A stretch of DNA of 64,000 bases from Eledone cirrhosa (GCA_964016885.1 CAXHJY010001589.1:1-64000), one strand, 5' to 3'. Counted from the first letter of the stretch, positions 1,311 through 61,178 are shown. The notes: generated by a model from the sequence alone, not told the origin. Numbers and translations: made by a program.

Positions 1311-1943
1311 AATCTTGGTTTAGCAAATAGAGAAAAAGTTTTAAAATAAATTTTAAAAGTTCGCTGTACTTACTATATGTACCCTTACCGCGCGGTTTCA
1401 AATCCCAAAATAAATTTATAATCCAGGCGGACCACCATTGAGACGGGGATTCTCGTCAGAAGGTTATTCTCGCTCGGAGAATATAAAATGTCCTTGTTCA
1501 AATCAGAAACTGGCGCTATGCAAAACTGTTCCCAGATGAGAGTGAATGAGGAAGGCACCAATTTTGTCTAGTGCCGTGTGTAAAGACAGATGGCAGGGGT
1601 GGACAGGTCAATGTTCTGCCACTAGAAATAGTAGCAGTTCAAACGACCAAATGTTCTCTCTACCTTAGGGGATATTAATAATAATAAAGTATGTGTTCCT
1701 ACGTGTAAAAAATACATATAGAGATACAAGTATTATCCAACCGTATGCCAATGTGGTTCTATGGCAGGTTAATAAATTAACGAGCCAGAACATATAAAAT
1801 CAAGGTTTAGCAAATAGAGAAAAAGTTTTAAAATATATGTTCTGGCTCGTTAATTTATTAACCTGCCATAGAACCACGTTGGCAAACGGTTGGATAATAT
1901 TGTATCCCTATATGTATTTTTACACGTAGGAACACATACTTTA
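1311..1943 (-). mobile_element. Retrozyme-like non-autonomous element (~487-bp monomer) with inverted 5' segment
   Basis: Direct repeat GGTTTAGCAAATAGAGAAAAAGTTTTAAAATA at 1317 and 1804. 1834-1943 is an inverted copy of ~1685-1795. It contains a hammerhead. Confidence 0.75.
1381..1464 (-). ncRNA. Type I hammerhead ribozyme
   Basis: Minus strand reads ACCTT-CTGACGA-GAATCCC...GGGATTT-GAAA-CCGCGCGG-TA-AGGGT. Stems I, II and III all pair, and the cleavage triplet is GUA. Confidence 0.85.
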
Positions 1944-1995
1944 TATATATATACATATATATATATATGTACATGCATATACATGTATATATATA

Positions 1996-2775
1996 TTTTT
2001 TTTTTCTAGGGCGGGTAAAATTCGCGAGATCCATTGACGAGTTCTCTCCAGCGGTCTCTGTCCCTCATTATCGTTGCCATGTCCTGCGTCTCCAACATAC
2101 CAGTGTCTGTCCTTAGGGCATCAACATACATTAACCTTGGTCTTCCTCTTCCAGCGTGTCCATGTAGGGGCTCCCACAGGAGCACTGAGTGCAATGTCAA
2201 CTCTGGATGTCGGTGAGCATGTCCAGCTAACCTCAGTCTCCTCTGTGTCACTTTTGAGCTGATTTTTGGGAGGCTCCGATACAGCTCTGAGTTTTTCATC
2301 CTCAGTGTATACTGATTAATGTTCAGAGCCATCCTCTGCATTCTCGTGTAGCACGCATCCACCATCTGAGTGAGTTTCTTGGTCAGTGTCCAAGTCTCAG
2401 ACCCGTACAGCAGCACAGACTCCACTACAGCAATGAAGAGGCGGATTTTCAGGTCTTTAAGAAGGTCCGACTTCCACACCGATCTCAAGCTGTGGCACGC
2501 CGCCCAGTCTTTGCTCTTCCTCTCAACTACATCATCTTCCATATTCCCAATCTTTGCTCCCAAATACAGGAAATCCTCAACCAATTCTAGCGGCTTCCCG
2601 ACTACATTAGTGATCCCCTCTGGCTTCTCAACATACTCTACCAGATATTTTGTTTATTAACAGGATCCAGCCTGAGATGGAGAAGAAGCTCAGGGACAAC
2701 CAGAACGGCTTCAGAGAGGGAAGATCAACCACCAATTCACATCCTGATGCTGAGGAGGATATTAGAGGGAGCTAA
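1996..2775 (-). mobile_element. RTE-clade LINE 3' fragment with an inverted 5' segment
   Basis: ORF 2006-2584 has RTE C-terminal motifs (VEDFLYLG, VLLYGSETW, RRLRLAGH, GRPR). 2656-2775 on the + strand reads NRIQPEMEKKLRDNQNGFREGRST, the RT N-terminal region. Confidence 0.85.
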
Positions 2776-3244
2776 TAATGTATATATATATATATATATA
2801 TATTTATATATATCTCAGGCTGGATCCTCTTAATGTACATATATATATATATATATATATAATGTATATATATATACATATATATATATATATATATATA
2901 TATATATATAAATATATATATATATTTATATATATATATATTTATATTTATATATATATTTATATTTATATATATATTTATATTTATATATATATATATA
3001 TATATTTATCTATATATGGCGTCCAGAATTAGCCGTCGAAACAGCTTGAGCTCAGCCGTCGGGGTCCTACTCGTTCCTATATTTATATATATATATATAT
3101 TTATACATATATTTATATATATATATATATTTATATTTATATGTTTATATATATTTATATATATATATATTTATATATATATATATATATATATATATAT
3201 ATATATATTTATATATTTATATATATATATATTTTATATAATAT

Positions 3245-56899: not shown

Positions 56900-57150
56900 A
56901 TATATGTATATATATATATATATGTATATATATATATATATATATATGTATATATATATATATATATATATATATGTATATATATATATGTATATATATA
57001 TATGTATATATATATATGTATATATATATATATATATATGTATATATATATATATATGTATGTATATATATATATGTATGTATATATATATATATGTATG
57101 TATATATATATATATATGTATGTATATATATATATGTATGTATATATATA

Positions 57151-57502
57151 TAACTTTGAATAACTTTGAAATGTTTTGGCCAGTATTGGCCCAGGCCATG
57201 TCTAACTTAATAGCACCACCTGGCGAAGTCTTTCAATTCAGGATTTGGGCACCATGGCCCATTCGAGAAGAGAATTACTGTTTGCGGAGACATATCCGGG
57301 TGTGGGTGGTTTGTCCGGGATTACTTGGAGGAATTTGTCCAAAGACTTCTTGAATATTTTGTGCTCAGTTTCTGTTTTGACGTGTCCTGGTGTGATGTTG
57401 AAGAGAGCAGGGCCAATTGAGGTGAAATAATTGTGCCGTATTGTTGTTATGAGTTGCGATTTAGATTTTTGTATGGGACGGATAGCACGGGGCCCAAGCC
57501 TT
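57151..57502 (-). mobile_element. CR1-group LINE family 1, 3' 350 bp
   Basis: Matches 17175-17526. Confidence 0.9.
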
Positions 57503-59242
57503 ATATATATATGTATATATATATATATATATATATATATATATATGTAAATATATATATATATATGTATATATATATATATGTATATATATATGTATAT
57601 ATATATATGTATATATATATATATATGTATATATTTATATATATATATGTATATATATATATGTATATATATATATGTATATATATATATATATATATAT
57701 ATATATATATTTATATATATATATGTATATATATATATGTATATATATATATATATATATATATATATATATATATATATATATGTATGTATATATGTAT
57801 ATATATATATATGTATATATATATATGTATATATATATATATATATGTATATATATATATATATATGTATATATATATATATATATGTATATATATATAT
57901 ATATATGTATATATATATATATATTCATATATATATATATATACATATATATATATATATATATATATGTATATATATATATATATATATGTATATATAT
58001 ATATATATGAATATATATATATATGTATATATTTATATGTATATATATATATATATGTATATATTTATATATATATATGTATATATATATATGTATATAT
58101 ATATATGTATATATATATATGTATATATTTATATATATGTATATATATATATATGTATATATATATATATGTATATATATATATATGTATATATATATAT
58201 ATATATATATATATATATATGTATATATATATGTATATATATATATACATATATATATATATATACATATATATATACTTATATATATATAAACATATAT
58301 ATACATATATATATATACATATATATATATACATATATATATATACATATATAAACCAACCAAACAGTGAGTGTCTTCTGTTATTAATTCTGGCAATATT
58401 ACGCAAATATGACCCTCCCCAAATATAACAATATATATATATATATATATATATGTATATATATATATATATATATGTATATATATATATATATATATGT
58501 ATATATTTATATATATATACGTATATATGTATATATATATATATATATATTAATGTATGTATATATATATGTATGTATATATATATGTATATGTATATAT
58601 ATATATATATATATATGTATATGTATGTATGTATATATATATATATATGTATATATATATATATATATGTATGTATATATATATATATATATATATATAT
58701 ATATATATATATGTATATATATATATATATATATGTATATATATATATATATATATGTATATATATATATATATATATATATATATATATATGTATGTAT
58801 ATATATATGTATGTATATATATATGTATGTATATATATATATATATATGTGTATATATATATATATATATATATATATATATATATGTATATATATATAT
58901 ATATATGGATGTATATATATGTATATATATATGTATATATATGTATATATATATGTATATATATATGTATATATATATATATATATATATATATATATAT
59001 ATATATATATATATATATGTATATATATATATATATATATATATGTATATATATATATATATATATATATATATATATGTATATATATATATATATGTAT
59101 ATATATATATATATATATATCTATATGTATATATATATATACATATATATATATATATATATATATATATATATATATATATATATATATATATGTATAT
59201 ATATATATATATATATGTATATATATATATATATATATATAT
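57503..59242. repeat. (TA)n tract containing a ~100-bp PLE family 2 terminus (58333-58432)
   Basis: CAACCAAACAGTGAGTGT...ATGACCCTCCCCAAATATAACAAT matches 16683-16757. Confidence 0.9.
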
Positions 59243-61178
59243 TTATTAGTAATAATAATAAAATTGAAGACTAAAACCCAAAGAGGGCTGGATAAGGAAA
59301 ATGTATATCAAATATATAAGAACCGTAGAGCAAATATTTATTAAAATAGCAGATTAAAGTTTAAGCAAAGAATCGCTGCTTTCACCCTTAACGGGATCTT
59401 CTGAAACTAACAAAGTCAATCTGTAAACGCAGAACTGGATATTTCAAAAAACGTTGCAACCGGAGGAAGACAGGAAGACGATACTTTGGTTCGTGGTAAC
59501 GTTCGCTGGCAAAGAACGGGAAAAAACGAATAATACGTCATTAATAGGAGCGGTGAAAAACAATTACGCGCAAAGACAAAACCACGTTTATGGTATAAAA
59601 GAGGTCGTAGACTAATGTTCTCTTAGGTGGTTCTCTGACAATGAACGGAAAAACGAAGATAATAAGTCATATGTGGAGCGTGGAGAACAATTACCTAGCC
59701 GTAGGAACACGTGCAACCCTGTAGTTAGTACTAACTGTAATTGTAGGAATCGGGCTGATTGCCCCCTATCCGGGAAATGCCTCTCTAGTAACATTGTCTA
59801 CAAATGTAAGGTTGTAACACCCACGTCCCGTAGCGCCTACATAGGGTTAACCGCCAATAGTTTCAAGCAGCGTCTTTACATGCATACCCATTCTTTTCGT
59901 TACCCTCTAAGAAGGAATATGACGTCACTTTCAGCTTATATCTGGAGTCTAAAAGACAACCACACCCAATATAAGTTACACTGGGAGATCCTAGCTAGGG
60001 CTAGATCGTATAACGGAAATAAAAGACCATGTGACCTCTGCGCCGCTGAGGCCCTGGAAATACTCTACGCCACAGACCACATCTTAAACAAAAAATCTGA
60101 GGCAATTTCGGCTTGTAAACATAATTTGCACAAAACTTTCCTGTATTACAGCCCCACGTTATAACCTAACGGATAGCACGATCTATACGTGGATATTTTA
60201 CGTCTTGATGTGGGAGCTAAGTATATGTTTTGTTTATTCCTTTACTTATTTGCATAGGTAAGTATATATTAGCCGTATGTTGTGTGAAGGTATGTATACC
60301 TTCTCGTACGTATATTTGACTGTTATGGCGTATAATTTTTACATATTCTGGTATTTAGAGTTTGGCTATGTGTATACGGGAGTTTTGCGTCCGCGTGAGT
60401 ATGCAGGTTCGTATGTATGGTGGGTGTGTGTATATGTGTACTTCTTGTTTTAGTTGACTTACGTCTCCGAACATTCGTGTATTTATATGTAGATATGCGT
60501 GTGCGCTTGTTATATACGTATTTATTTACTTATATACGTTTATATAATTATTTATTTATTTGTACACAAGCATACACACACACACATATTTATATGTGCG
60601 TGGTTTTGTATACCTATGGTAAGGTTTTGCGTATGCTTGTGTATGTACGTATTTGTTTGCGTGTATGTATTTATTTGTTTCTATTACTTCTGTATCGTAT
60701 TTATTTACTTTGTTCTTAACTCTGTAGCGGAGATTCATTTGGTCTCCTAGTTAGAATTTTAGTTTACGATTTCTGCTATACCATTTACGTGGTTTTGTCT
60801 TTGCGTGCTATTGTTCTCCACACTCCACATATGACTTATTATCTTCGTTTTTTCGTTCATTGCCAGAGAACGTCTCTATGCACCACCTAAGAGAACATTA
60901 GTCTACGACCTCTTTTATACCATAAACGTGGTTTTGTCTTTGCGCGTAATTGTTTTTCACCGCTCAAATTAATGACGTATTATTCGTTTTTTCCCGTTCT
61001 TTGCCAGCGAACGTTACCACGAACCAAAGTATCATCTTCCTGTCTTCCTCCGGTTGCAACGCTTTTTGAAATATCCAGTTCTGCGTTTACAGATTGACTT
61101 TGTTAGTTTCAGAAGATCCCGTTAAGGGTGAAAGCAGCGATTCTTTGCTTAAACTTTAATCTGTTATTTTAATAAATA
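59243..61178 (+). mobile_element. Naiad-like PLE 3' fragment with inverted 5' pLTR
   Basis: ~59334-59690 is the reverse complement of ~60810-61178, and these repeats enclose a GIY-YIG ORF. Confidence 0.85.
59691..60164 (+). pseudogene. Naiad-type GIY-YIG endonuclease domain (5'-truncated)
   Basis: CNCRNRADCPLSGKC linker, IVY...YIG, FKQR, LSAYIW, CDLC, LNKKSE and CKH motifs. Confidence 0.85.

Follow-up and report, generated by a model that had tools for sequence, protein, structure and literature searches.

Inverted 5′ arms and paired 3′ ends of hammerhead arrays among Penelope-like elements in Eledone cirrhosa

Which enzyme inserts the short, protein-free tandem repeats with hammerhead ribozymes (HHRs) that lie beside Penelope-like elements (PLEs) in Eledone cirrhosa? 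The question is raised by a 64,000-nt stretch of this genome (CAXHJY010001589.1:1-64000, GCA_964016885.1), here called the window, to which all counts refer unless stated otherwise. The window is AT-rich, with about 29% of (TA)n-type microsatellite (45,496 of 64,000 bases remain after masking), and is a cluster of retroelement insertions into (TA)n tracts. An earlier, sequence-only reading had listed eight elements with an inverted piece at the 5′ end of the strand that carries the ribozyme or open reading frame (ORF), and had taken this as a signature of integration of the non-coding arrays in trans by the reverse transcriptase (RT) and GIY-YIG endonuclease (EN) of PLEs. The architecture is borne out, and what points to PLEs specifically is that two 3′ end sites are fixed and that a tail stands on one side only, rather than the 5′ inversion alone.

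Inverted arms, offset ends and recurring end sites

All eight inversions, numbered E1 to E8 in window order (Table 1), were recovered by self-BLAST of the microsatellite-masked window and arm-to-arm alignments, with inner junctions within a few bases of their earlier placement; the inverted arms of E2 and E6 appear longer than had been read, each running to the next (TA)n. The sense strand is set by a type I HHR in seven elements and in E8 by a GIY-YIG ORF on the plus strand. The strict version of the HHR descriptor, which gave 0.03 hits per shuffled window (30 shuffles), matched in E1, E2, E5 (including the copy inside the inverted arm), E6 and E7. The HHRs of E3 (seven on the plus strand and one on the minus strand, in the inverted arm) and of E4 were found only by a relaxed scan, in which the stem II test is dropped, the shuffle null belonging to the strict scan only. 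Every junction is head-to-head (8/8, binomial p = 0.004 if independent); the non-coding tandem units alone give 4/4 (p = 1/16), two of them, E3 and E7, coming from homologous families. While the eight cases are genuine, the earlier list omits a ninth (54324-54367), five PLE/HHR insertions without an inversion and a long interspersed nuclear element (LINE) that has one, and its term 'non-coding arrays' fits E1, E3, E5 and E7 only: E4 and E8 are coding PLEs, and E2 and E6 are single-HHR pieces.

A 5′ inversion is a mark of target-primed reverse transcription that is enriched in, and not specific to, the PLE/HHR class. It is not PLE-specific because a LINE of the apurinic/apyrimidinic endonuclease (APE) type at 2005-2778 also carries one: relative to a homologue with 77% identity, residues 679-892 are at 2012-2653 on the minus strand, residues 481-521 at 2650-2773 on the plus strand (E 3.5e-12), and residues 522-678 are gone, a deletion of about 157 codons in a twin-priming-like inversion. 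We take this LINE to be RTE-like, and the LINEs of the window to be RTE-like or CR1-like. By hand count, an inversion is present in 8 of 13 PLE/HHR insertions and, among LINE pieces, in 1 of 8 (Fisher p = 0.067); with a ninth, putative LINE piece included this becomes 1 of 9 (p = 0.031); a window-edge copy, a mini-insertion and an unclassified palindrome (188-752) are excluded. The five PLE/HHR insertions without an inversion are 7835-8276, 15362-16753 (counted as one with its duplicate at 32196-33587), 29890-30905, 50343-52315 and 58354-58428. The APE-type LINE being inverted too, the reason originally given for linking the arrays to PLEs was insufficient.

The two arms of each of the eight elements stop at different element positions, leaving a one-sided tail that had gone unremarked in the sequence-only reading. 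The extra stretch lies on the inverted arm in E1 (111 nt), E2 (134), E6 (99), E7 (72) and E8 (94), and on the direct arm in E3 (60), E4 (62) and E5 (about 160). Arm and tail boundaries were set by hand from alignments, tandem-unit offsets being modulo the monomer, and the extra stretches of E2, E6 and E8 are single copy in the window. In family C (E3) and family D (E7), which are homologous (alignment z 14.5) and whose end regions align (z 4.8), the end sites are swapped between arms: in E3 the direct arm uses end 2 and the inverted arm uses end 1, and E7 shows the reverse. The sites are spaced 72 nt apart in family D and about 60 nt in family C; C end 2 recurs at window positions 1-34, and D end 1 recurs at 29890. 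Likewise, end 1 of the E4 type is used by the inverted pseudo-long terminal repeat (pLTR), by the mini-insertion at 54324 and, in a related family, at 16753 and 58428, these last two and the end of the E7 direct arm being read by eye from alignments with indels. The mini-insertion joins both PLE ends head-to-head: its pLTR part matches in 39/39 positions, and its tail 11-mer occurs only there and at three PLE tail ends.

The two ends of families C and D were recorded before any read mapping, and four public runs were then mapped on one D monomer. In run X1, with 897 contigs on the monomer, the best-supported loose ends are 30643 (12 contigs), exactly where the E7 inverted arm ends, and 30712 (5 contigs), within 3 nt of the 30715 end of the 29890 array; both have (TA)n next to them, 3′ with respect to the ribozyme strand, with 32 further loose ends beyond those listed, and X1 may be the assembly's own sample. 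Structure, polarity and the recurrence of the ends are read directly. Pol III-type runs of T were considered as an explanation of the fixed ends and not adopted: family D has T5 runs near both ends, and C end 1 has none.

Retrozyme units, coding elements and the rest of the window

E1, E3, E5 and E7 are animal non-LTR retrozymes, protein-free units of 466-593 bp with one type I hammerhead each. The arrays (466 bp x6.9, 466 bp x2.1 and 593 bp x2.4) have unit sizes within the retrozyme range of about 150-1000 bp, and the descriptor finds a type I HHR in each unit. Rfam HH9 matches family C at E 0.083 and the D array at 29890-30905 at E 3.1e-6, both below the gathering score, and Rfam gave no ribozyme match in E5; the whole-window Rfam matches listed, with 221 lower-ranked rows beyond them, are dominated by (TA)n look-alikes of microRNA families, which were discarded as chance. 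A tblastn comparison of the arrays with 323 retroelement proteins gave no match, and the longest ATG ORFs are 20-112 aa in the arrays, those in family C probably running through microsatellite, and 42 aa in E1. Folded as circles, the units have predicted z values of -4.5 (C), -5.2 (D), -3.3 (E5) and -1.9 (E1). The E5 hammerheads (45512, 46105, 46722) read as having the core UUGAUAA with the U3-A8 pair kept; the U3-A8 and U4C variants are presumably known ones.

In families C and D, the octamer ATGCAAAT, present in every E3 monomer, a conserved TAATTTTCATA block and a TATA-like element stand upstream of the HHR. This block is possibly a putative small nuclear RNA (snRNA)-type promoter, the octamer, proximal sequence element and TATA roles being our own assumption. 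The 5′ end of the D array (30898-30905) shows a local duplication of 17 bp, and joined to it is a LINE piece whose 3′ 290 bp are missing. The C/D hammerhead pattern has 0 loci in metagenome contigs and 0 in viral contigs. A public run search with the E7 stretch found part of E7 in 20 of 24 listed rows from 17 studies, with no RNA dataset among the matches listed; X1, X5 and X7 of the family D matches were mapped, with substantial coverage in X1 only. The family D stretch (48940-49512) stands under 17 organism codes among these matches and, if this is real, is conserved across species or has spread between species.

Among the coding elements, E4 has a weak RVT_1 match, homologues that span RT and EN and a readable GIY-YIG-type core, and the main PLE protein has its best match in a protein predicted for Octopus vulgaris (66% identity). 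In both E4 copies a (CAA)n-like repeat (37643-37866 and 41719-41942) encodes a long stretch rich in Asn, Thr and His, which recalls the N-rich inserts of rotifer Penelopes (PMC3846280) and here lies upstream of the RT. The EN of E8 matches the C-terminus of full-length relatives (E 5.7e-33), the RT having been lost through 5′ truncation, and neither the relaxed descriptor scan nor Rfam found an HHR in this element. Both E4 and E8 show pLTR, inverted 5′ copy and one-sided tail. A protein search found no coding remnant in E2 or E6, and the direct arm of E6 is probably a truncated pLTR. The candidate enzymes of the window are one of Neptune/Nematis type, with a CX4CxxC linker, and two Hydra-type elements, clade labels resting on motif comparison with PMC8557442. 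The Hydra-type family has apparent HHR-like motifs at 52159 and 8087 with the core variant CCGAAGA.

Table 1. Positions of the elements and element parts discussed, in window order; rc, reverse complement.
Feature	Position	Strand	Details
Diverged family C 3′ terminus	1..34	+	Same end 2, then (TA)n; cut by window edge
E1 direct arm	1314..1833	-	487-bp non-coding unit and short partial repeat; HHR core 1459, predicted cleavage after 1386
E1 inverted 5′ arm	1834..1943	+	rc of element positions 1796 to 1684; about 111 nt past direct-arm end
APE-type LINE with 5′ inversion	2005..2778		Direct 2005-2655 on -; inverted upstream RT piece 2650-2778 on +
E2 direct arm	3234..4184	-	Single HHR, core 3347, predicted cleavage after 3298; not tandem; without protein match
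E2 inverted 5′ arm	4185..4411	+	4185-4277 repeats direct 3′ end (rc of 3326-3234, 88/93 identical); 4278-4411, up to (TA)n, putative 134-nt tail
Piece related to PLE 50343-52315	7835-8276		Inversion none seen
5′-truncated PLE related to E4	15362..16753	+	Without inversion; same end 1; duplicate at 32196-33587
E3 inverted 5′ arm	21795..22280	-	486 nt, one monomer + 20; rc of 22605-23090 (490/492 over aligned stretch); stops at family C end 1 (equivalent 22624)
E3 array, family C	22281..25484	+	6.9 near-identical 466-bp monomers, one HHR each (22346 to 25144); stops at end 2 (equivalent 22683-22686)
Octamer/TAATTTTCATA/TATA-like block	22724-22775 and each C monomer; 30136, 30602, 49286 (minus)
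Family D array	29890..30905	-	2.1 monomers of 466 bp; HHRs 30043, 30509; 3′ end at D end 1 (equivalent 30715)
E4 inverted pLTR	36587..36760	-	rc of 40811-40984; stops at PLE end 1, just inside ORF start
E4 coding PLE	36761..45120	+	Two tandem copies; RT, CX4CxxC linker, C-terminal GIY-YIG; frameshifted
E4 HHRs and tail	HHRs 40784, 44858; tail 45059-45120	+	62-nt tail
E5 array	45197..46603	-	2.4 monomers of 593 bp; HHRs 45512, 46105 with U3-A8 core variant
E5 inverted 5′ arm	46605..46878	+	HHR at 46722; 46605-46881 is rc of 45629-45353
E6 inverted 5′ arm	47485..47665	-	47583-47665 repeats direct 3′ end (rc of 47807-47889); 47485-47582 putative 99-nt tail
E6 direct arm	47666..47889	+	Single HHR 47791; first 15 core/stem II bases as in E4 HHR
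E7 direct arm, family D	48936..49298	-	0.8 monomer; HHR 49193; stops at D end 1
E7 inverted 5′ arm	49299..49512	+	49299-49441 is rc of 49077-48935 (143/143); 72 nt past direct 3′ end, to D end 2 (equivalent 30643)
Hydra-type PLE	50343..52315	-	Cut at 3′ side; HHR-like motif with CCGAAGA core at 52159; inversion none seen
Mini-insertion, E4 family	54324..54367	.	43 bp: 39 nt pLTR ending at end 1 on -, 6-nt overlap with tail end on +
75-bp PLE 3′ end	58354-58428		Without inversion
E8 inverted 5′ arm	59243..59690	-	59334-59691 is rc of 60810-61179 (350/358); reaches 94 nt past direct 3′ end
E8 direct arm	59691..61176	+	5′-truncated PLE; GIY-YIG with Hydra-clade motifs CxCX5C, CxxC, CxH; 1-kb 3′ region

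Elsewhere in the window, a 565-bp fold-back at 188-752 lies between (TA)n tracts, with arms 188-443 and 497-752 of about 88% self-identity; it has matching outer ends and no hammerhead, and is either an element like a miniature inverted-repeat transposable element (MITE) or a symmetric head-to-head insertion. At 14061-16904 and 30905-33785 lie two copies, about 96-99.6% identical, of a block composed of a LINE piece, (TA)n, a PLE piece and a small unclassified piece. Small inserts within (TA)n at 2803-2833, 4528-4568, 7574-7599, 16796-16904, 34762-34879 and 63710-63757, one of them an exact 50-bp tandem pair, are probably very short retro-insertions.

Probable insertion by a Penelope-like protein, and the alternatives

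We consider it probable that PLEs mobilise the arrays by two-site priming. A Penelope-like RT/GIY-YIG protein acting in trans would insert them into (TA)n by cutting both target strands, and cDNA would be started from each 3′ end at one of two fixed RNA sites. On a multimeric or circular RNA template one cDNA would run long, giving the array, and the other would stop early, after which the two cDNA ends would be joined head-to-head, almost blunt. The product would consist of an inverted arm followed by a direct arm, and only one of the two would carry the tail, which is what lies between the start sites; E4 and E8 are laid out in this way. From the observed structures we infer the RNA intermediate, its circularity, the identity of the enzyme and the priming on two strands. 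Two priming events, one per target strand, are favoured because the inverted arms of E2, E6, E7 and E8 hold sequence without a counterpart in the direct arm. E4 and E8, being coding PLEs, are a reference for this layout rather than evidence for trans-mobilisation. The integration in trans by a PLE protein that the sequence-only reading proposed is the best-supported reading, through the fixed ends and tails, with 'in trans' as its more conjectural part, since a search of the window found no autonomous partner that shares sequence with the arrays.

A more specific version is tentative and, in our estimate, rather unlikely: rather than decayed pLTRs, C and D may be independent circular RNAs driven by snRNA promoters, with their own conserved 60-72-nt two-site RT-initiation element, at which a PLE dimer would prime both (TA)n strands, the cDNAs meeting head-to-head. 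If true, all PLE inverted heads would come from two-strand priming and not from fold-back, and the tail of C and D would act as a transferable signal by which foreign RNA is loaded onto the PLE protein.

Besides the limits of the X1 mapping given above, several points weigh against PLE mobilisation. Runs X5, X7 and X23 gave 2, 0 and 2 records on the D monomer, and the mapping of public runs listed no joints, so that no junction is confirmed by reads. No array family convincingly shares sequence with an autonomous pLTR of the four PLE families in the window; the few matches between array and autonomous PLE termini (z 3.5-8) are mostly in simple sequence. Recurring ends are established for C, D and the E4 type only, not for E1, E2, E5, E6 or E8, and E1 and E5 offer an inverted head and offset ends only. 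The D array at 29890-30905 is without an inversion, and its 5′ end adjoins a LINE piece. Most outer ends share 2-5 nt with (TA)n, unlike initiation by the PLE protein in vitro, which occurred without homology (PMC11167929); the tails are 60-160 nt long vs the 30-40 bp described (PMC8557442) and fold without a common structure (fold z +0.4 to -2.9), and target duplications are unreadable within (TA)n. The head-to-head inversion of the APE-type LINE and the (TA)n flanks of the window's LINE pieces count on the same side.

These last two observations, together with the short microhomology at the outer ends, would be explained if an APE-type LINE, RTE- or CR1-like, had mobilised the arrays and the inversions had arisen by ordinary twin priming, in which the second target strand would pair with the RNA where it is rich in TA. 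We regard this as unlikely. Self-BLAST of the array ends against the LINE pieces of the window found no match, at their 3′ ends or elsewhere, of the kind by which a LINE-dependent short interspersed nuclear element is recognized; inversions are rarer among LINE pieces on the counts given above (p 0.03-0.07); and in two homologous families both end sites are shared by direct and inverted arms, and these sites are found again in X1. Annealing-based priming is, moreover, disfavoured because the E3 inverted arm crosses a 17-nt pure TA tract and stops only beyond it, at the homologous counterpart of D end 1. A small chance, of about the same order, is left to an origin that is PLE-related and differs in its steps, the inverted arm being made by cDNA fold-back or by self-priming on antisense RNA (the model of PMC3846280) and the arrays forming afterwards, when a solo pLTR is amplified in place (as envisaged in bioRxiv 10.64898/2026.07.22.740005). 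Several junctions lie within palindromes whose spacers measure 30-213 nt, short direct-orientation spacers occur in E1 and E6, near-identical E3 monomers are also expected from recent local amplification, and an antisense RNA template is compatible with the data, which tells against the preferred mechanism as well. Yet the four inverted arms with sequence of their own were not copied from inserted cDNA, the inverted arm of E5 matches the distal monomer (277/277) and not the nearer one (273/275), and in the five cases that allow a full test, microhomology at the inner junctions amounts to only 0-3 nt.

An origin at the DNA level, by rolling-circle (HUH/Helitron-like) amplification or by template switching during repair, with the hammerhead as a passenger, seems very improbable. 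The C and D monomers do have a microsatellite within them and a hairpin close to their 3′ end, and such a combination recalls non-autonomous Helentrons, but polarity follows the ribozyme strand in 7/7 HHR-bearing cases, 5′ ends are variable where 3′ ends are fixed, and neighbouring coding PLEs have the same layout. Just as remote is the idea that the inversions are assembly or library fold-back artefacts: the arms of E3, E5, E6 and E7 are essentially 100% identical, in a highly repetitive region whose junctions the run mapping left unconfirmed, whereas a divergence of 2-6% separates the arms in E1, E2, E4 and E8, four inverted arms have stretches with no counterpart in their own direct arm, the E7 inverted arm ends on the terminus used by 12 contigs of X1, and a random artefact is not expected to be head-to-head in eight cases of eight.

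Comparison with known systems

Inversion of the 5′ part of L1 by twin priming is a known mechanism, and the LINE at 2005-2778 resembles the present elements in its head-to-head inverted 5′ piece. There, however, the inverted piece comes from coding sequence further upstream, a deletion accompanies it and its outer end is not fixed, whereas both arms of the HHR elements, as seen in C, D and the E4 type, end at recurring 3′ termini. A second likeness is to newt satellite 2, an HHR satellite with an snRNA-type promoter (cited in PMC2220036): C and D are HHR tandem repeats with octamer, TAATTTTCATA block and TATA-like element upstream of the HHR, although their promoter is putative. The non-autonomous Chlamys elements (MRC1; PMC8557442) are likewise non-coding PLE parasites in multicopy head-to-tail insertions, but generally share 3′ sequence with an autonomous family, in a clade mostly without canonical HHRs; inverted heads are not mentioned for them in section 10 of that source.

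The closest architecture is that of endonuclease-positive (EN+) PLEs (Neptune/Nematis, Hydra), with partial tandems, a head-to-head inverted 5′-truncated copy, a tail at one end, an HHR in the repeat and (TA)n targets. An inverted 5′-truncated copy with a 30-40-bp tail, often at one end only, is described in PMC8557442 and likewise in PMC3846280. Hydra and Neptune PLEs target (TA)n (PMC8557442), and both types, by their motifs, are present in the window. Shared EN+ motifs are the CX2-5CxxC linker of E4, the CxCX5C, CxxC and CxH of Hydra in E8, and RWR and DKT in 50343-52315. Purified PLE protein cuts and extends both target strands, with initiation at two sites inside the RNA between which the tail lies (PMC11167929), and trans-mobilisation has been inferred from direct plus inverted pLTRs for a rotifer host gene (PMC8557442, PMC3846280, PMC11167929). 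The present elements differ from EN+ PLEs in their longer tails and in that the architecture also occurs on protein-free arrays; E8 is without a detected HHR, whereas HHRs are said to be universal in the Hydra clade.

Animal non-LTR retrozymes were defined, with PLEs named as a strong candidate mobiliser, by Cervera and de la Pena (2020, PMC7229834), and have been called non-autonomous PLE derivatives, from co-occurrence and pLTR phylogeny, by Li, Clavereau and Pollet (bioRxiv 10.64898/2026.07.22.740005). A literature search, mostly by titles and abstract openings, found no paper that argues for retrozyme mobilisation from inverted heads or tails; the main texts of these two studies do not use them as an argument, and their supplements may show inverted retrozyme copies. 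The PLE architecture and the PLE-retrozyme link are already in print, and what is added here is an increment, the evidence of insertion scars. Such scars are more direct evidence on the enzyme that moves animal retrozymes, for which PLEs have so far been proposed; they are also relevant to the origin of the inverted heads of PLEs and to the question whether an array is inserted complete or lengthens after insertion, and they give exact predicted positions of RT initiation, separated by 72 nt in D and by about 60 in C, that can be tested in the existing in vitro PLE assay. Like animal retrozymes, the arrays are built of non-coding units of a few hundred bp in tandem, each unit with a single type I HHR; they are low in GC, have strong predicted self-pairing as circles and occur alongside PLEs. 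The two published studies argue from HHR type, co-occurrence and pLTR phylogeny, whereas the present case, known from DNA alone, argues from the scar of insertion, with no pLTR homology found.

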